A DNA stretch of 45,060 nt from a virus (lineage: Duplodnaviria > Heunggongvirae > Uroviricota > Caudoviricetes), in IMG/VR virus record IMGVR_UViG_2718217795_000003, one strand, 5' to 3'. This document shows positions 4,601 to 21,372 of this stretch, one piece after another. The position numbers and the translations under genes are program-made. The notes under the pieces are model-generated. The model made no database searches, was not told where the DNA came from, and worked only from the letters and a program-made list of their open reading frames with translations. How positions within the stretch are numbered: position 1 is the stretch's first letter; every line of letters starts with the position of its first letter.

Positions 4601-5086
4601 TATCGCGTCCTCAACAATGAATTTTGTGATGCAGTGCCTGGTGCCTCCAGGTGACGTTAACCAGTTAACAATTAACGCCGGATACAGAGAATCCACCCAT
4701 AACACTGTTTTTGGTTTTAACTGTTCCGCGTGCGCTTAGCCGCATTCACCGCATCACAAAATTCACTTTAAAAACGGCGGCAGAGCAGTCACGGAGTAAA
4801 ACTGATACCGCCAAACACCACCAGAAAATTGATAACAGAGGGCGTTGCAGCGGGGTTGTCACTTAAGCGTATGGTCAACCTGACAACTCGGTGTCCTCAA
4901 CGGGGAAGGAATAACCCCGCCATACTTACCGCCGCGCCATTTTGCGGGCTGCCACAACCGGAAGCGCACGGTCGAATTAAATTTAACGACACCGTACAGT
5001 GAGACGAACTTCGCCGTGCGCTTTCGTGTTGTGTGCCTGCTTTTAACCACGTCAGGCGAGGTGGTATCCTTAAAATCACCACAGTT

Positions 5087-11086: not shown

Positions 11087-11297
11087 TTTCACATTGGCGA
11101 GGTAACGGTAGTTAAGTAGAATGGCTGCGGGTGCTTGAGGCTATCTGCCTCGGGCATGAACACCAACGGCAGATAGAGAAAAGCCCCAGTTAACATTACG
11201 CGTCCTGCAAGACGCTTAACATTAATCTGAGGCCAATTTCATGCTAGACATATGTAGGTTAGCCTCTTACGTGCCGAAAGGCAAGGAGAAGCAGGCT

Positions 11298-11453
11298 ATG
11301 AAGCAGCAAAAGGCGATGTTAATCGCCCTGATCGTCATCTGTTTAACCGTCATAGTGACGGCACTGGTAACGAGGAAAGACCTCTGCGAGGTACGAATCC
11401 GAACCGGGCAGACGGAGGTCGCTGTCTTCACAGCTTACGAACCTGAGGAGTAA
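11298..11453 (+). CDS. hok: Hok/Gef-family type I toxin
   Basis: 51-aa product MKQQKAMLIALIVICLTVIVTALVTRKDLCEVRIRTGQTEVAVFTAYEPEE is a canonical Hok family sequence (recalled as HokD/RelF-like); AAGGAG RBS; in-frame upstream extension from 11241 corresponds to the leader/mok region. Confidence 0.85.
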   Translation: MKQQKAMLIALIVICLTVIVTALVTRKDLCEVRIRTGQTEVAVFTAYEPEE

Positions 11454-12267: not shown

Positions 12268-13317
12268 GTGCGGGTATTACTTCGACCTGTTCTGGTACCG
12301 GAACTCGGGCTGGTGGTCGTTAAGCCGGGCCGTGAATCCATGCCGGTATTCCACAATACCCGGGTACTGGTGGAGCCGGAACCGAAAAGCATGCGTAATC
12401 TGCCGTCCGGGGTCGTTCCTGCCGTTCGCCAGCCGCTGGTGGAAGACAAAACATTGCTGCCGTTTTTCAGTAACGCACGGGTAATTCGTGCTGCTGGTGG
12501 TGCTGGTGCATTGTCTGACTGGCTGTTGCGCCATATTAAATCCTGCCAGTGGCCACACGGCGATTATCATCACAGCGAAACCGTTATTCACCGATATGGT
12601 ACCGGCGCAATGGTGTTGTGCTGGCACTGCGACAACCAGCTGCGTGACCAGACATCCGAATCACTCGAGCAACTTGCTCATCAAAACCTGTCAGCATGGA
12701 TGATTGACGTCATCGGTCACGCAATAAGCGGTACGCAGGAGCGTGAATTATCTCTGGCTGAATTATCCTGGTGGGCGGTCCGCAATCAGCTGGCGGACGC
12801 GCTACCGGAAGCGGTATTACGTCGCTCGCTGGGATTACCAGCGGAAAAAATCTGCTCGGTGTACCGCGAAAGCGACATCGTACCGGGAGAGCAGACCGCC
12901 ACCAGCATATTGAAACAGCGCACAAAAAATCTTGCACCGTTGCCTCACGCCCACCACCAACAAAACCCATCACAGGAAAAGACGGTGGTAAGCATCACCG
13001 TTGATCCAGAGTCTCCGGAATCTTTCATGAAGCTGCCTAAACGTCACCGGTGGGTTAAGGAGAAATACACACGCTGGGTTAAGACACAGCCGTGTGCTTG
13101 CTGCGGTATGCCAGCCGACGATCCGCATCATCTGATTGGTCACGGGCAAGGCGGAATGGGAACCAAAGCACATGATCTCTTTGTTTTGCCTTTGTGCAGA
13201 AAGCATCACGACGAGTTGCATACGGATACCGTGGCATTTGAAGAGAAGTATGGCTCCCAACTGGAGCTGATTTTTCGATTTATCGATCGCGCGCTGGCAA
13301 TTGGTGTGCTGGCCTAA
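12268..13317 (+). CDS. DUF968-family protein with C-terminal HNH-like Cys/His cluster (YdfU-like)
   Basis: GTG start with GGAGG upstream; 349 aa; C-terminus [43 protein letters not shown]. Confidence 0.7.
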
Positions 13318-13334
13318 TTTTGTGGAGTAAGTTG

Positions 13335-13712
13335 ATGCGTGATATTCAGATGGTTCTTGAGCGTTGGGGGGCATGGGCGGCTAATAATCATGAAGATGTG
13401 ACCTGGTCGTCCATTGCCGCCGGTTTTAAGGGATTAATTCCTTCAAAAGTAAGATCTCGTCCGCAATGCTGTGACGATGACGCGATGATCATTTGTGAAT
13501 GTATGGCTCGCCTGAAAAAAAACAACAGCGATTTACATGATTTATTGGTGGACTATTATGTCGGCGGCATGACTTTTATGGCGCTTGCACGTAAGCATGG
13601 GCGATCTGATTGTTGGGTTGGCAGGATGCTCCAGAAAGCTGAGGGCGTAGTGGAGGGCATGCTGATGGTGTTGGATCTCCGATTGGAGATGGATGCTGAT
13701 TGTTCGAAATAA
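13335..13712 (+). CDS. Q: Late-gene antiterminator Q
   Basis: [24 protein letters not shown]...[18 protein letters not shown] matches lambdoid Q (QuuQ-like) antiterminators; positioned before a strong terminator. Confidence 0.75.
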
Positions 13713-13810
13713 TTAAAGGAAAAGTTGCTGTCTGATTTTCATTAGTCTAACATTTTAAATGTTGGAATCGCAACGTAGTTATTATCATATAACAGCTTGT
13801 TTCCTGATTT

Positions 13811-13840
13811 AGCCAGCCTCCCCAAAGGCTGGTTTTTTTC
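13811..13840 (+). terminator. Rho-independent terminator (probable tR', target of Q antitermination)
   Basis: GCCAGCC-TCCCCAAA-GGCTGG hairpin followed by T7, about 100 nt after Q. Confidence 0.6.
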
Positions 13841-13867
13841 TAATAAGTATCATTTCGGGTGGGGATT

Positions 13868-14392
13868 TTATTGTTTAACCCATAATAGTTCATTGACATT
13901 GAATCCCAACTTTTGAGCGGTACGCACATAGTCTGCTTTTACATTATCTGGAATAGTTTGGGTCCTTGCCAGAATCCATAGGTATTCTCTGTTCGGACCA
14001 CTGACAAGAGCATACTTATACTCATCATCCAGTTTGATTACATTATAGCCACCATAGAAGGGGCCAAAAAACGAAACTTTCAACGCTGCAGTTTTAGTAT
14101 CTCCAGTAAAGTATGCTTTACCTTCGCTCTCGCTCCATTTGTTTTTCGTTGGATCGTATCCACGGTTAAGTACGCGAATCCCTCCGTCGTTCCGTTTTTC
14201 ATAAGTAGCGCTGACCTGTTCCAGACCACGTTCGAACCAGTTCTCGAGGCGAGCTATTTCATACCATTTTCCGAGGTAGCGGTTGGCGTCAAAATTTGTA
14301 ATCGGCTGCACACCTTTAGGTGGTGTCGGGGCCTTACATGCTATAAGAGTGAAAGAGAGTGCAATGCCAGTCAACACAGGCCATAACTTCAT
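13868..14392 (-). CDS. blc: Bacterial lipocalin Blc-like outer-membrane lipoprotein
   Basis: 174 aa; signal peptide with lipobox LIAC; lipocalin signature GKWYEIARL; reverse-oriented moron between Q and the lysis genes. Confidence 0.85.
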   Translation of the reverse strand: MKLWPVLTGIALSFTLIACKAPTPPKGVQPITNFDANRYLGKWYEIARLENWFERGLEQVSATYEKRNDGGIRVLNRGYDPTKNKWSESEGKAYFTGDTKTAALKVSFFGPFYGGYNVIKLDDEYKYALVSGPNREYLWILARTQTIPDNVKADYVRTAQKLGFNVNELLWVKQ

Positions 14393-14584
14393 AATAAATC
14401 CTGTACTTTTGATAGTTGAGAGTAAGTATGAAAGATAGATGAGTACGACCGATCACTTAAAGAACTTTCCTACTATATTAGGAATAGTCAATAACAGAAA
14501 AATTGTCAGTGATGAAGCCAGAAAGGCAATTTAGTCCGTGCACTACAAAGTTTATGTGTTAATGAATTAGTCAAGGGGGAGGAA

Positions 14585-15455
14585 ATGATAAAAAAACCTG
14601 TGATTGGGATCAGCGGTTGTTTGGGCGGTTCTGCTGTTCGTTTTGATGGTGGTCACAAAAGAGATGACTTTTTAATGGACAAATTAGTGGAATGGGTAAC
14701 ATTCAGACCAGTATGTCCGGAAATGGCTATAGGGCTGCCAGTTCCGCGTCCTGCTCTACGACTTGTGCGCTCGAAGCAAGGAAATATACGGATGTGTTTC
14801 AGCCACGACCAGAATGAGGATGTGACAGAGAGAATGACAGAGTTTAGTCGTTCTTATATGGACAAATTAAAGGATGTATCGGGGTTTGTGGTTTGTGCTA
14901 AATCTCCCAGCTGTGGCATGGAGCGCGTGCGTGTCTATGATGAAAATGGTAATCGAGGTCGTAAAGATGGAGTGGGACTATTTACGAGCACTTTGATGGA
15001 AAAGTTTTCCTGGCTACCGGTTGAAGAGGATGGGCGATTACATGATCCAGTGCTTCGTGAGAATTTTATTGAAAGAGTTTTTGCTTTGCATGAGCTCAAT
15101 CATCTTTACAAGGAGAAATTATCAAGAAGAGAGTTATTAGCTTTTCATAGTCGTTATAAGCTTCAGTTGTTGGCGCATAGCCAGGCAGGCTATAAAGATA
15201 TGGGACCATTTGTGGCTGCAATACACGAATGTGCTGATGCATATACAGGGGTATTTTAGTAATTACTTAAGTACACGCCAGCGTAAAGAGTTGAGCGAGG
15301 TTATACTTAACTATCGCTTTGGCACATTGCCTCTTCTTGCGCCGTTGACTCTGCTGAAGCATTATCTGGGTGAGTATCCTAATGATTACTTGCTTACACA
15401 GAATTACTTCGATCCCTATCCGGAAGAACTGGCTCTAAGACTGATGGTGAATTAA
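14585..15455 (+). pseudogene. YbgA/DUF523-DUF1722-family gene interrupted by a frameshift
   Basis: ORF 14585..15259 (MIKKPVIGISGCLGGSAVRFDGGHK..., DUF523-like N-terminus) and ORF 15210..15455 continue each other in different frames; strong RBS AAGGGGGAGG before 14585. Confidence 0.55.
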
Positions 15456-15861
15456 CTGTATGCGATATCATCTGAAAGTGATGAGTTCCTGTATGCAGGA
15501 TATTTACAATCGTAAAAACTACGCTATGATGCCCATAGTGTCAGTTTGTATAAAAATCCTGTTCACGCTAAAGAAAACATTGAGATGCAATTTAATGTTG
15601 GTAAACATACCAGCCCCAAAAGATTTTATTCAATCTGTTTTTATATGAAGATATTTCAAGTGAATATTAAGAGCATATAATATTATTATTGCACGCAGCT
15701 ATTATAATATAACAGATTAGTTTAATGATTTGTTTTTTGTGAGTTAAACACATGGTTTTATAGTTGTGATGCAATGAGATTTTCCTTATTGTTGAACTGG
15801 CGAATATTGATTTTCCACCTATACTTACCTGGTGTAACCCCAATGATATCAGGTGGATAAT

Positions 15862-16575
15862 ATGCCATACATATGTTCTATCATTTTGGTGTTGAACTCG
15901 TTTGGTGTCCGAATTGGTAAAGAAGATATTTTGTTTAAAAAAGGAAATGCTGTCCTCATTGAATACAATTTAAAAGATCTTTTTTCGTCAAATACAGATC
16001 ATCTAATGATCGTAGATGTTGAGGAGAAAACAGTTAATGATTTCTTTAAAAACTACACACTCTCACCTTTTTCTGTAAGAAGGTTTTATCCGTCATACTT
16101 GATAGTAGAATGTGAAGATTTTTCATTGTTAAGGAACTTGGTTGCATGCTTGAATTGTGATAGCAAAACCGTGGATGTAGTTAGAAATCAAATATCACTT
16201 GCATGTCTTGCTGTCTTATCTTCAGAGAAAATAGTGCAAAGTTTTTTGTTCGGAAGTCTTAATAGCTTAGGTTGTAAAGTTAAGGCTATTATTCACTCGG
16301 ATATCTCAGCGTCATGGAGACTTTGTGATATATCTTCAAGATTATATATGAGCGAGAGTTTGTTAAAAAGAAAATTAAAAGACGAAGGATTATCGTTTAG
16401 TAAATTAATTCTTGAAGAACGAATGATGATGGCGCAAAGATTATTGATCTACAGTAACCATACTGTCGGCAAGGTGGCGGGAATATGCGGGTATGACAAT
16501 GCATCATATTTTGTAAGTGTTTTTAGAGGATATTTTGGTGTGCCTCCGCGCCAATATTTATCAAGATTTTCTTAG
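15862..16575 (+). CDS. AraC-family transcriptional regulator (AppY/EnvY-like prophage regulator)
   Basis: ATG at 15862 with AGGTGG upstream; C-terminal AraC-type HTH (...GYDNASYFVSVFRGYFGVPPRQY); very AT-rich gene and flanks. Confidence 0.8.
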   Translation: MPYICSIILVLNSFGVRIGKEDILFKKGNAVLIEYNLKDLFSSNTDHLMIVDVEEKTVNDFFKNYTLSPFSVRRFYPSYLIVECEDFSLLRNLVACLNCDSKTVDVVRNQISLACLAVLSSEKIVQSFLFGSLNSLGCKVKAIIHSDISASWRLCDISSRLYMSESLLKRKLKDEGLSFSKLILEERMMMAQRLLIYSNHTVGKVAGICGYDNASYFVSVFRGYFGVPPRQYLSRFS

Positions 16576-16765
16576 AAGATATGATGTGATGGTATTTTAT
16601 AAAGTTATTTTTTGAAGTGTAAGATTATACGATATTTTTAGCTACGCCAGAATAATTGCTGGCGTTTTTCTTTTTGAATAGATGTTCGGGCCTTACGCTA
16701 ATGTAACTTCTTTCCTTCTTCGAACCAAACCGTGTACACCATCCGTTATCTGCGGAGGTGAGGCT

Positions 16766-16981
16766 ATGAAATCCATGGATAAGTTAACAACGGGCATCGC
16801 CTACAGCACCTCTGCAGGCAGTGCTGGCTACTGGTTTTTACAGTTGCTCGATAAAGTCACGCCCTCACAGTGGGCGGCAATAGGTGTATTGGGTAGTCTG
16901 GTATTTGGCATGCTGACGTATCTGACAAACCTTTATTTCAAGATTAAAGAAGACAGGCGTAAGGTTGCGAGAAGAGAGTAA
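16766..16981 (+). CDS. S: Holin, phage-21 S21 pinholin type with dual-start motif
   Basis: [66 protein letters not shown]; GGAGGTGAGG RBS; two Met codons (MKSM) as in holin/antiholin dual starts. Confidence 0.85.
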
Positions 16982-16985
16982 TCCA

Positions 16986-17537
16986 ATGACTCAAGACTAT
17001 GAACTGGTTGTGAAAGGAGTTCGCAATTTTGAGAATAAAGTGGCGGTAACTGTAGCCTTACGGGACAAAAAACACTTTGACGGTGAAATTTTTGACCTGG
17101 ACATCTCGCTGGACCGTGTTGAAGGTGCCGCGCTGGAGTTTTATGAGGCAGCAGCCAGAAGGAGCATCAGACAGGTCTTCCTGGATGTTGCTGCCGGGTT
17201 ATGTGAAGGGGATGAGCAGTCGCCGGAAAAGCGCCCCATAATTTTAGAGGCGCAGAATGCGTGGATAACCTACAAAGGAAAGCTACCGGGAAGAATTACT
17301 GGTTCTCTGAAGACGCCACCGACGGCATTGCGGTCAGAAAAAGATGATATTGAATCGCCCATTGAAAAACTGGAGGGCAGCGTCGCTGATCTGAATAAAA
17401 AATTGTCGGTGCTGATTCCTTCTGAAGATGAAAAAAAACGCCGCGATGAGCAGTTTGCGGCGTTTTACGATTATTGCATTGAAGTTACTCGCAGGAATTT
17501 TGTGAAGATTTTTGAGGAGGGTAAATCTCTTCAGTAA
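16986..17537 (+). CDS. Hypothetical lysis-cassette protein (YdfR/DUF1327-like N-terminus with C-terminal extension)
   Basis: 184-aa ORF between holin and endolysin; the 3' portion overlaps a - strand ORF, so the true extent is uncertain. Confidence 0.45.
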   Translation: MTQDYELVVKGVRNFENKVAVTVALRDKKHFDGEIFDLDISLDRVEGAALEFYEAAARRSIRQVFLDVAAGLCEGDEQSPEKRPIILEAQNAWITYKGKLPGRITGSLKTPPTALRSEKDDIESPIEKLEGSVADLNKKLSVLIPSEDEKKRRDEQFAAFYDYCIEVTRRNFVKIFEEGKSLQ

Positions 17538-17745
17538 GCTTATTGGCGGACGCTGCAATTAATTCAGGAAGGTCCGCAAGGTCATCTGTCAGTGGATATG
17601 ATGAAAAATCGGCGGCAGTTCTGTTAAGAAGCGCTTTAACTAATTCCTTTTCCTTCTCCGGCAACAAGTTGATTAGAGCTACGACTGCTTGCCTGAGTGC
17701 GATTAAATCAGCAAAAGTTTGTTTAGGTAGATTTGTGTAATCCAT
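17485..17745 (-). CDS. Hypothetical small protein (opposite strand within the lysis cassette)
   Basis: 86-aa ORF with protein-like composition; overlaps the 3' end of the preceding + ORF, so one of the two may be spurious. Confidence 0.3.
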   Translation of the reverse strand: MDYTNLPKQTFADLIALRQAVVALINLLPEKEKELVKALLNRTAADFSSYPLTDDLADLPELIAASANKLTEEIYPPQKSSQNSCE

Positions 17746-17858: not shown

Positions 17859-18886
<1,028 letters not shown>

Positions 18887-19249
18887 ATTAATATTAAATC
18901 GGATTATTTTTAGCGCTGAATGTGAAATTTAAATAAAAAGGACTCTTCCATGAGTCAAAATCCTTGAAATCTTAAGGGTAAGATAAAAGATCATTAGACA
19001 GAATGACACGTTTTATTAATAAATAAAGCTATTGTTTCATTCGTGTGTTTTTCTTTACAAAAGTAATCCTTGCTATGGTTGGTTAATCATGCGTTAATGG
19101 TGTTCTGGTTTGTTACAAAATTATCTGAAGCAGTCATTGTTATAATTTTATTATTTGTACCTCTTGAGATTTCCTTGTTGGTTTTTCTCTCTGATATTTT
19201 TTTTCGGACCATTCTGCCCAAGGGCTAACTTCTTCAAAAGGTAATAATG

Positions 19250-19462
19250 ATGTCTAACAAAATGACTGGTTTAGTGAAATGGTTTAACCCTGAAAAAGGT
19301 TTTGGTTTCATCACGCCGAAAGATGGTAGCAAAGATGTGTTTGTCCATTTCTCAGCTATTCAGAGCAACGATTTCAAAACGTTAACTGAGAATCAGGAAG
19401 TCGAATTTGGTATTGAGAACGGACCTAAAGGCCCCGCGGCTGTTCATGTTGTGGCACTTTGA
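19250..19462 (+). CDS. cspI: Cold-shock protein CspA family (CspI-like)
   Basis: [38 protein letters not shown]...; long AT-rich 5' leader (about 18890-19246) typical of cold-shock genes. Confidence 0.9.
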
Positions 19463-19661
19463 GGTAGAAAATATTACAAACCATATTCACTTTAGATGCC
19501 CGTGTTGCCATGGTTCTCAGTATAGAACATCATCTTTTGATGTTTCTGACAGGAATCCTTTCGGGGCAAAATGTATCTTTTGTAAATCAATGATGATTAC
19601 ATTTGATAATATTTCACAATACTTAAATGTTAGCCGTCTATCGTTAGATTTAAGAAAGTGA
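19446..19661 (+). CDS. Small Cys-rich protein (YdfK/YnaE-like cold-shock-associated prophage protein)
   Basis: 71-aa ORF with CPCCHG...CIFCKS motifs directly after csp, followed by a strong terminator; start position uncertain. Confidence 0.45.
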
Positions 19662-19665
19662 AAAT

Positions 19666-19690
19666 GAAGGCTCCTTCGGGAGCTTTTTTG
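19666..19690 (+). terminator. Rho-independent terminator
   Basis: AAGGCTCC-TTCG-GGAGC hairpin followed by T6. Confidence 0.7.
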
Positions 19691-19733
19691 CTTAGTGTCT
19701 AGTCGATGGATACTCACATAATACGGTAACATT

Positions 19734-19964
19734 ATGAAAAAAATAATAGTTTTTTTTAACTCTGAACCAGCAATGGTAGTGCCAGTGATGACCGGAGTTA
19801 ACACCATCATGCGTGAATATCCAAATGGCGAAACAACACACCTCACTGTAATGGCTGCAGGGTTTCCATCTCTGACCGGAGATCATAAAGTCATTTATGT
19901 AGCAGCGGATCGACATGTAACTTCAGAAGAAATTCTGGAAGCAGCAATGAGACTCTTGAATTGA
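19734..19964 (+). CDS. Hypothetical protein
   Basis: 76-aa ORF in AT-rich accessory segment; weak RBS. Confidence 0.35.
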   Translation: MKKIIVFFNSEPAMVVPVMTGVNTIMREYPNGETTHLTVMAAGFPSLTGDHKVIYVAADRHVTSEEILEAAMRLLN

Positions 19965-20133
19965 TTTGATTCTAATGCATTGATAATAAATGATAATCAT
20001 CTTTATCTGTTTGTGTGAAATTTAGACCGTCGTATGTTGATTATTGCGATGTTTCATCTTATCTTTTATACGTTTGCTCCATATAATTGACACTACTGTG
20101 TACCAGGAAAGTCATAACAGACTAAAAGAGGAA

Positions 20134-20310
20134 ATGATGAACATTGAAGAGTTAAAAACAAAAACAGAAGCAGATATTTCTGAATATATAACAAAAAAAA
20201 TCATTGAGCTTAAGAAAAAGACCGGGAAAGAAGTTACCAGTATCCAGTTTACTGCACGGGAAAAAATGACTGGTCTTGAAAGCTATGATATCAAGATTGA
20301 TTTAATCTAG
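20134..20310 (+). CDS. gnsB: GnsA/GnsB-family small protein
   Basis: MMNIEELKTKTEADISEYITKKIIELKKKTGKEVTSIQFTAREKMTGLESYDIKIDLI; AGAGGA RBS. Confidence 0.7.
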   Translation: MMNIEELKTKTEADISEYITKKIIELKKKTGKEVTSIQFTAREKMTGLESYDIKIDLI

Positions 20311-20603
20311 TCTGTTTAGTATTAGCATCAATTTCTCATCAGATGCTATTCAACAATACAAATTACCCATAAACCTCGTTTTTACGGGGTTTTGTTATAT
20401 TTAAACATTACCGAATAGGTATAAATCTCGATTGTCGATGGTATTGGTTGTGTGACAATACCTAGTCTTTCCGGTATGCCTGAAGAGAATACAAACGACA
20501 GATTATGTAAGGGAAACGCGCTGAATCTTTAACTCTTTCATGCTGAGTGATTTGACGTTATATTTTTAGCCGTAAGTGAAGAGCAAACGCATGGAGCGAC
20601 AAA

Positions 20604-20810
20604 ATGCATAAAGATCAATACACTGATGCCCCCTCCCAGGAGCAGGTTCGTGTAAAAACTATGCTTAATAGCACCATTTCGATGAGTTACCCGGATGTTG
20701 TAATTGCATGTATAGAACATCAAGTGTCTCTGGAAGCATTCAGGGCAATTGAGGCCGCGTTAGTAAAGCACGATAAGAATACGAAGGATTATTCCCTGGT
20801 GGTTGACTGA
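20604..20810 (+). CDS. Hypothetical protein
   Basis: 68-aa ORF, weak RBS; AT-rich accessory segment before the terminase. Confidence 0.35.
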
Positions 20811-21372
20811 TCACCATAACTGCTAACCATTCTGACCATTTCACAAGTGACAGAGTCAATATCGTATTCTGTCACTGTCAGGCTAATACAGCAATGCAAT
20901 TCAACTACAGCAATGCCTCGTATTTAGGTGAATTTACAATATCGTCCAGTTCGGATGCCGGCTGCATTTCTGAAGATAAGGCATTTCGGTTCTCGTATTT
21001 TCCCCTCATGCTCGTCAGTCCTGCGCGTAGTAAGAAACAGGACACTCACACTAATTTGTGTGGGCATGCTGTGATGTCCTTCTGAATTATCCCCATGCCA
21101 TTATGTAAAGCTCTGTTACAGATGCTCGTCACGGTTGTCAGGCTGTCGGGTCCTCCCAGTGGGGGGCCCTGCCACGGGGCGGGAGCGTCGCGGAAAAAGG
21201 CTAGTTTTTGCATTTCCATGGCGGCGGCAGCATGTTTGGTAATTTATTGATAATTAAAAGTTATTTCCCTTTTCACCTGTACAATATTTTTTTCTTCCTG
21301 TCATTAGACCAGTTTGCAATTAATTGAAATATATAAATAAACCTGATTTTCACCTGCCAGATGGAGTTGCTT

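Follow-up and report, generated by a model that had tools for sequence, protein, structure and literature searches.

A probable composite lysogenic-conversion cassette of blc, rudS and an AraC-family regulator gene in the Q-to-S interval of a Qin-site lambdoid prophage

What occupies the interval between the antiterminator gene Q and the holin gene S of this prophage, where did its genes come from and what could they do for the lysogen? The window, meaning the whole stretch of 45,060 bases that was analysed, is 100% identical over all its bases to Escherichia coli CFSAN061763 and represents a lambdoid prophage at the Qin site, apparently complete, with a gene set running from the integrase through to the tail fibre genes. 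The interval very probably holds a composite lysogenic-conversion (moron) cassette. It is an ordinary locus, common and described before, and the blc moron, the viral RudS and the prophage AraC regulators of acid resistance have each been published already. The first of these has been listed among the common morons of lambda-like phages, and more than half of those from the infant gut carry it.

The Q-to-S interval and its cargo

The order of elements is Q, a leader with a tR'-like terminator, blc in reverse orientation, rudS, a long AT-rich spacer, the araC gene with its terminator and the holin gene essQ, which is the first lysis gene and encodes a P21-type holin (Table 1). RefSeq annotation of the identical sequence agrees with this, including a 'YbgA family protein, frameshifted'. 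The original prediction had placed a moron island here at 13713-16600, and Pfam and NCBIfam matches confirmed that its three gene families were correctly named and located. Its extent proved slightly wider, at 13695-16745, as homology with prophage DLP12 ends at 13694 and resumes at 16746. The comparison with DLP12 also upheld the idea of a variable cargo site, since Q is 86% identical there and the holin region 88% (DNA) with nmpC reversed between them. Both these borders, with nmpC in place of the cassette, and the deviant G+C content (38% for the cargo versus 48.9% for the window) are features of a moron. The low G+C, the conserved promoter-like element and the terminator around the regulator are all compatible with this reading.

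Table 1. Features of the Q-to-S interval and its flanks (window positions)
Feature	Position	Strand	Details
Q antiterminator, QuuD-like, 125 aa	13335..13712	+	PF06530, 171 bits
Candidate late promoter (pR') region	13684..13760	+	Putative; two candidate sites
tR'-like intrinsic terminator, 3' of Q	13811..13841	+	9-bp stem (5 G-C pairs), 6-nt loop, T7 run
blc paralogue, outer-membrane lipocalin lipoprotein, 174 aa	13868..14392	-	Pfam and NCBIfam
Divergent blc/rudS intergenic region	14393..14584		34% G+C; conserved among phage alleles
rudS (TudS/DUF523-DUF1722 tRNA s4U desulfidase) pseudogene	14585..15455	+	89-bp deletion junction 15222/15223
Promoter-like element, TTTACA-16-TATGAT	15503..15530	+	10/12, best of the region; ~330 nt 5' of araC start
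AraC/XylS regulator, PatE/AppY/YdeO/GadX group, 237 aa	15862..16575	+	PF12833, PF00165
Intrinsic terminator, araC/holin gap	16644..16675	+	ACGCCAG-loop-CTGGCGT then TTTTTCTTTTT
Class II (S21-type) holin essQ, right border of module	16766..16981	+	PF04971, 116 bits; RefSeq essQ

Deposited genomes of 12 viable phages have the same Q-blc-rudS-araC-S module at this site, and DLP12-type prophages carry it too. The homology of phages 1H12 and IdasGreatGrand with the window stops at 16982, and Q, leader and cargo were found together in every phage examined. All three cargo genes are under purifying selection (dN/dS of 0.10-0.23 for blc and about 0.22 for araC), the dS of araC being 2-6 times higher. 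Other cargo is known from this position: nmpC lies downstream of Q in DLP12, reverse-oriented like blc, the first gene of the cassette, and the K-12 prophage Qin (cspB/cspF) and the Stx phages (stx) have other genes at the same insertion site. Unlike these, the cassette appears composite, its three genes having come from two separate sources. None of Blc, RudS and AraC matched the PADLOC defence models. A search of Rfam, over the whole window at the gathering threshold and over 13500-17000 at E<=1, left the cargo empty save for a weak, sub-threshold match of the tR'-like terminator hairpin to a small-RNA family.

The AraC-family regulator

The AT-rich regulator had been likened to AppY and EnvY, and this was true in part. 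Its gene has 33.8% G+C versus 48.9% for the window, and its C-terminal double helix-turn-helix domain matches PF12833 (60.5 bits) and PF00165 (42.3 bits), the best PDB match being the DNA-binding domain of GadX (3MKL, E 3e-21). AppY is a full-length homologue (30% over 238 aa, E 4e-42) and EnvY (31%) aligns over partial length. Of the characterised regulators compared, the closest by sequence is neither of these but PatE: Sakai ECs_0287, which we take to be PatE (Z0321) as the only AraC gene of the corresponding Sakai prophage, is 47% identical over its full length (237 aa). The similarity to both ECs_0287 and AppY is collinear and includes the N-terminal domain. Sp6, the Sakai counterpart of OI-50, showed no AraC homologue by annotation or tblastn. 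The NCBIfam equivalogs scored below cut-off (YdeO, the best, 112.9 versus 348 bits; GadX, 89.7 versus 500), and the protein belongs to a separate subfamily, phrog_1450, present in about 900 genomes.

The promoter-like element upstream of the gene is kept in four of four aligned alleles, the rest of the spacer being diverged or deleted, and it would be a candidate for the araC promoter. Two spacer ORFs between rudS and araC (62 aa and 44 aa) were rejected as genes for want of conservation in phage 1H12. In a lysogen, araC would use a promoter of its own and its product would plug into host stress regulons. PatE, PsrB and AppY are described as AraC-type regulators from prophages that control acid resistance system AR2 and act on gadE/hdeAB. 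They share AT-richness and a prophage location with the cassette regulator, although PatE and AppY sit beyond the tail-fibre genes whereas the cassette regulator lies between Q and S.

The protein could instead be a local regulator of blc/rudS or of phage genes, which we consider unlikely. This reading gains from the fact that araC invariably accompanies blc/rudS in the phages of E. coli and from Enterobacter, where a dedicated MlrA/MerR-type regulator lies between blc and rudS, so that the pair would normally be locally regulated. Moreover, the N-terminal half is just 35% identical to PatE and thus the signal and the targets may differ. However, identity to PatE reaches 65% in the C-terminal DNA-binding half, whose first recognition helix is nearly identical, the characterised prophage relatives AppY, PatE and PsrB are all regulators of host genes, and the divergence history of araC differs from that of blc and rudS. 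Action on host stress regulons is most likely, judging from these relatives, and fits the architecture of the cassette. In commensal E. coli the phrog_1450 regulator could be a further route by which prophages feed into the network for acid resistance.

The rudS pseudogene and its partner blc

The gene is split into two + strand ORFs, 14585-15259 and 15210-15455; PF04463 was detected in the first only, and positions 51-117 of PF08349 in the second. The prediction of a DUF523/DUF1722 gene broken within 15200-15260 was right as to the domains and the place, but the lesion is not a shift of one or two bases. Alignment with an intact 960-bp allele gave one 89-bp gap with ACACGA direct repeats at both sides, and the loss is a microhomology deletion between these repeats. 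With codons 216-245 missing and the reading frame changed after them, the product has no tRNA-binding DUF1722 domain and consists of 215 native residues and a 9-residue tail (224 aa). TudS and a complete DUF1722 in one polypeptide, a feature of RudS, are present in the intact allele and not in the window copy.

The name 'YbgA-like' had to be abandoned. YbgA of E. coli (b0707), whose gene shares an operon with phr for photolyase, has 48.7% identity with the intact allele in the DUF1722 half, but it has DUF1722 only, without the TudS domain of the RudS fusion, and it leaves tRNA s4U unchanged, so the label understates the cassette gene. Over 319 aa the intact allele shares 92% identity with RudS_vir (gp66 of Escherichia phage 1H12), which is the same gene in the same place of the same module, with the same Cys12, Cys44 and Cys110; the window copy differs from it by the absence of the 89 bp and of a working DUF1722. 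A lowered tRNA s4U content was measured for RudS_vir, whereas stand-alone TudS left tRNA s4U unaffected (Jamontas et al., NAR 2024, PMC11417400). Binding of tRNA by RudS requires residues of DUF1722, and as this domain is broken the window copy is expected to be dead for the removal of tRNA s4U. Intact RudS would turn tRNA 4-thiouridine back to uridine and so cut the growth delay induced by UVA, an activity that most E. coli would lack.

Contrary to the statement that E. coli lacks RudS (PMC11417400), rudS was found in 1135 of 5426 complete E. coli genomes (~21%). With a phage-borne gene in so many strains, the resident prophages may cause strains to differ in the s4U content of their tRNA and in their response to near-UV. 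Most of these copies are intact and full length, some other strains have IS1 inserted in the gene, and the exact 89-bp junction occurs in 4 of the 5426 genomes.

The 224-aa product might still be alive as a stand-alone desulfidase acting on free 4-thiouracil or 4-thio-UMP, but we regard this as distinctly improbable. PF04463 is complete over residues 7-149 and the product keeps Cys12, Cys44 and Cys110 (RudS_vir positions, PMC11417400 Table 1), Glu46 (C-P-E) and Ser107/Ser109 (S-P-S-C); stand-alone TudS enzymes are known, and among the RudS enzymes tested it was RudS_vir that allowed growth on 4-thiouracil after the shortest lag (PMC11417400). Against this, the deletion allele is rare (4 of ~1135 rudS carriers), which points to recent decay rather than to a selected form, about 65 residues of broken DUF1722 and the out-of-frame tail may destabilise the protein, and the IS1 insertions indicate a dispensable gene. 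An artefact of sequencing or assembly in a strain whose gene is really intact, as had been envisaged, is scarcely credible in spite of the RefSeq wording, merely 'frameshifted', and of the majority of unbroken copies, since the break is a single clean gap edged by a 6-bp direct repeat and not a homopolymer slip, and recurs identically in four independent complete assemblies (from a cheese source and two human ones), which makes re-sequencing for error moot.

The partner of rudS is the reverse-oriented lipocalin lipoprotein gene, found as predicted. Its product matches Lipocalin_2 (PF08212) with 146 bits, passes the NCBIfam Blc model NF007786 (312.6 bits, cut-off 267), aligns to PDB Blc 3MBT with an E of 8e-67 and is 58.6% identical to K-12 Blc and 96% to gp65 of 1H12. 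The signal, read by eye from the translation, is MKLWPVLTGIALSFTLIAC/K, with the lipobox L-I-A-C at residues 16-19 and Lys at +2, and this non-Asp residue would agree with the outer-membrane sorting of Blc. E. coli Blc (b4149; PDB 1QWD, 2ACO and 3MBT), a binder of lysophospholipids or fatty acids, has the same fold family, length and type of lipoprotein signal. As an outer-membrane lipoprotein the cassette Blc would likewise handle lipids. It differs in being phage-borne, and it is less close to K-12 Blc than to the product (mostly 75-80% identical) of a second blc that Enterobacter, Leclercia and Citrobacter have in linkage with rudS.

That second blc, divergent from rudS and upstream of it, lies at the chromosomal rudS loci of Enterobacter, Leclercia and Citrobacter sedlakii, which have no araC homologue. 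The sequences suggest that blc and rudS were probably captured jointly from an enterobacterial chromosome, and that araC likely has a separate history and was added independently. The cassette would then clearly exemplify how the Q-to-S hotspot can bring together a chromosomal unit of two genes and a regulator unrelated to it. The blc/rudS intergenic region did not align with the chromosomal loci of Citrobacter and thus gives no evidence that the native regulatory region was captured as well, and no promoter-like site for either gene passed a promoter scan of this region; in a lysogen blc would use its own promoter. Elsewhere the surroundings of rudS vary: in Klebsiella oxytoca and Citrobacter amalonaticus it closes a cluster of genes for cyclopropane-fatty-acid synthase, DUF1365 and amine oxidase, and in none of 64 chromosomal loci was the K-12 photolyase gene beside it.

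It is tempting, though speculative and on balance doubtful, to see blc/rudS as a mobile module of protection from near-UV and photo-oxidative stress that came from an enterobacterial chromosome and was spread by lambdoid phages. If true, roughly one-fifth of E. coli strains would gain a phage-supplied eraser of tRNA s4U, and, with a PatE-like regulator coupled to the pair, a single prophage locus could adjust survival of both light and acid, outside and inside the host.

Late transcription across the cassette

The late promoter pR' and the Q-binding site of lambdoid phages lie directly 3' of Q, and cargo such as stx is Q-dependent. The Q protein of the window is 86% identical to K-12 QuuD and 97% to gp64 of 1H12. 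Two candidates for pR' were located: TGGAGA-18-AATAAT at 13684-13713 (9/12) and TTGCTG-17-TAACAT at 13725-13753 (7/12, found by eye). This stretch (13684-13760) is conserved in 1H12 and IdasGreatGrand but unalignable with DLP12, and the poor alignment of the leader with DLP12 is of no help in placing pR'. The tR'-like terminator is also kept in 1H12 and IdasGreatGrand. After induction, Q-modified RNA polymerase would initiate just 3' of Q and pass both terminators, reading antisense over blc and sense over rudS and araC into the lysis genes.

Alternatively, the cargo could lie outside the Q-dependent late transcript, its genes being autonomous and the lysis genes using a promoter just 5' of the holin gene. 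The late promoter is placed only as candidates, blc is oriented opposite to late transcription and a promoter-like site does occur at 16558-16585. However, that site precedes the strong terminator in the araC/holin gap, so its transcripts would end before S unless antiterminated, and the sequence shared with DLP12 begins again a mere 20 bp ahead of the holin start, too little to accommodate a promoter common to both. Together with the joint occurrence of Q, leader and cargo in the phages and the lambdoid precedent, this makes autonomy of the cargo very unlikely. Q-dependent transcription through the cassette is in keeping with its architecture, as the two + strand terminators between Q and S fit read-through by a Q-modified polymerase.

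Prophage setting of the cargo cassette

The window is identical (100% across 45,060 bases) to positions 2,389,376-2,434,435 of the E. coli CFSAN061763 chromosome. This lambdoid prophage occupies the Qin site, adjoining rspB, and its gene order is integrase, dicB/DicF, hokD/sok, rem, ydfU, Q, lysis genes, cspI cluster, terminase, head and tail genes and pinQ. The original prediction of three cargo genes between Q and the lysis genes was essentially right: open reading frames and domain matches place all three where expected (Table), and the RefSeq labels on the identical sequence agree (lipocalin family protein, frameshifted YbgA family protein and helix-turn-helix domain-containing protein). 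Three points need correcting: the type of lesion, what the "YbgA-like" gene is and which regulator is nearest. The locus is an ordinary one, a common and already annotated moron cassette with parts from published families.

Table. Features of the window
Feature	Position	Strand	Remarks
DicF small RNA	4775-4826	-	Rfam 72 bits, above gathering score
DUF4209 protein, 595 aa	8836-10623	-	PADLOC PDC-S39, E 3e-102
sok antitoxin RNA, hokD locus	11129-11303	+	Rfam 113 bits, above gathering score
Q antiterminator, 125 aa	13335-13712		PF06530
Candidate late promoters	13684-13713 and 13725-13753		conserved in phages; weak matches
Intrinsic terminator, directly after Q	13811-13841	+	
Lipocalin lipoprotein (blc), 174 aa	13868-14392	-	Pfam Lipocalin_2, 146 bits; NCBIfam Blc subfamily, 312.6 bits (cut-off 267)
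DUF523/DUF1722 gene (rudS), split in two ORFs	14585-15259 and 15210-15455	+	
Promoter-like TTTACA-16-TATGAT	15503-15530		kept in four alleles, rest of spacer diverged
AraC-family gene	15862-16575	+	
Intrinsic terminator, between araC and holin gene	16644-16675	+	
Holin, S21-type	16766-16981		PF04971
Two extra genes, holin to endolysin	16965-17745		
ORF inside rzpQ, out of frame	18540-18836	+	lipobox LTSC, proline-rich tail
Second cargo cluster, after Rz	19092-21000	+	

The G+C content is 38% in the cargo, 33.8% in araC and 31.5% in the spacer before it, against 48.9% in the window. Homology to prophage DLP12 ends at 13694, the end of Q, and restarts at 16746, 20 bp ahead of the holin gene; DLP12 carries a reverse-oriented nmpC where the window has the cargo. 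Homology to phages IdasGreatGrand and 1H12 spans 13293 to 16982, and therefore Q, leader, cargo and holin gene move as one block. Phage 1H12 has the same Q-blc-rudS-araC-holin arrangement. Given the two + strand terminators, a holin gene expressed from upstream would depend on antitermination, in keeping with Q-dependent read-through of the cargo. The promoter-like element ahead of araC is the best candidate for the promoter of that gene.

Some other genes were noticed in the window. The reverse-oriented DUF4209 protein of the early-right region, matching a candidate defence family, may be a prophage-borne anti-phage gene. Of the extra genes after the holin gene, one is a YdfR/DUF1327-like ORF of 190 aa with an end-to-end match to phrog_2091, labelled an incomplete pseudogene in RefSeq, and the other a reverse-oriented ORF of 86 aa (phrog_2572). 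The ORF inside rzpQ resembles an Rz1 o-spanin and is without annotation in the matching RefSeq record. The second cargo cluster consists of a cspA-type thermoregulator leader (Rfam RF01766, 110 bits) followed by cspI, ymcF, ynfN and gnsB.

The rudS gene and its deletion

The label "YbgA-like" was not borne out, as the gene encodes a TudS(DUF523)-DUF1722 fusion whereas YbgA of E. coli (169 aa) has DUF1722 alone. This fusion architecture has been named RudS, and gp66 of Escherichia phage 1H12 ("RudS_vir") was among the enzymes tested (PMC11417400). Every RudS enzyme tested reduced tRNA 4-thiouridine in E. coli, while stand-alone TudS or YbgA did not lower it; moreover DUF1722 residues contribute to binding of the tRNA anticodon arm, and RudS_KT shortened the UVA-induced growth delay (PMC11417400). 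In strain EC0026B the gene is intact (960 bp), and this allele encodes a protein 92% identical to gp66, with Cys12, Cys44 and Cys110 in both.

Aligned with this intact allele, the window gene shows no substitutions and one 89-bp gap, bounded in the intact gene by an ACACGA direct repeat (positions 639 and 728, exactly 89 bp apart), a pattern typical of deletion by microhomology or slippage. A 42-base query, built to seed matches nowhere but at the deletion junction, had hits in two CFSAN and two human isolates, 4 of the 5426 complete E. coli genomes. The gene rudS itself was found in 1135 genomes (near full length in 1063). From these results the lesion is real, rare and recent. The suspected frameshift is thus a repeat-bounded deletion common to four genomes, and a base-calling error is ruled out. 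The predicted product has 215 native residues and a nine-residue tail (CADAYTGVF), and the second ORF represents the last 77 codons, kept out of frame. From this truncation we infer that the tRNA activity has been lost; the product may have residual activity on free 4-thiouracil.

The lipocalin and the AraC-type regulator

The lipocalin, which has a LIAC lipobox with Lys at +2, shows 58.6% identity to K-12 Blc and 96% to 1H12 gp65. Over half of the infant-gut lambda-like phages of Mathieu et al. (2020) are listed with blc as a moron.

The predicted resemblance of the regulator to AppY/EnvY holds in part: AppY is a full-length homologue (30% identity, E 4e-42), but EnvY gives only a partial match and the nearest regulator is Sakai ECs_0287, which we take to be PatE (Z0321). 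Identity to ECs_0287, the sole AraC gene of Sakai prophage Sp1 (the counterpart of OI-8), is 47% over the full length, with 35% in the N-terminal half and 65% in the DNA-binding half. The top NCBIfam model is YdeO, scoring far under the cut-off, and among solved structures the GadX DNA-binding domain matches best. PatE, PsrB and AppY are described as prophage regulators that all activate gadE/hdeAB acid resistance, and by analogy a role of this kind is the most likely one here.

Distribution and origin of the cassette

The cassette was matched in 1153 of the 5426 complete E. coli genomes, and in 880 of these the match covers 80% or more of the cassette. There are two main araC alleles, one at 99% identity or more (329 genomes) and one at about 89% (567 genomes). 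The whole cassette is also present in DLP12-type prophages and in 12 deposited phage genomes, always in the Q-to-S position. The three genes have dN/dS values of 0.10-0.23, and araC exceeds blc and rudS 2-6-fold in synonymous divergence. All three proteins have end-to-end PHROG matches, to families whose listed function is unknown.

When one genome per species was scanned, RudS proteins with 66-76% identity turned up on the chromosomes of Citrobacter, Enterobacter, Klebsiella, Leclercia, Kluyvera, Pectobacterium and others. Most of the Enterobacter and Leclercia loci, and that of C. sedlakii, have a divergent blc paralogue upstream of rudS; its identity to the window lipocalin is mostly 75-80%, higher than that of E. 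coli's own Blc. The blc/rudS spacer is of similar size in C. sedlakii (187 bp) and in the window (192 bp). Enterobacter has an MlrA/MerR-type regulator and a transthyretin-like gene between blc and rudS. Amine oxidase, DUF1365, cyclopropane-fatty-acid synthase, DUF2878 and DUF3833 genes form a cluster with rudS at its end in K. oxytoca and C. amalonaticus. As no araC homologue was found in the chromosomal rudS loci examined, the cassette is composite; judged from these gene neighbourhoods, it is a putative captured blc/rudS pair joined to an unrelated AT-rich regulator.

Cassette copies of other E. coli strains carry IS1 within rudS and IS3 near or in araC, so cargo decay is independent between lineages. 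In the BL21 derivative Nico21(DE3) a 147-bp phage rudS remnant (NZ_CP053600.1, 1589699-1589845), annotated as a 2-thiouracil desulfurase family protein, is the sole part kept. A 93% match to the first 418 bases of araC in E. coli 042 (NZ_CP042934.2, 813380-813796), annotated "PH domain-containing protein", may be a recombinant or truncated allele. Finally, contamination during binning almost certainly explains two short contigs (L064 and L069) of a MAG labelled Candidatus Nanosynbacter, one with Q, blc and rudS and the other with rudS, araC and the holin gene, whose proteins are 92-98% identical to those of this E. coli phage cassette.
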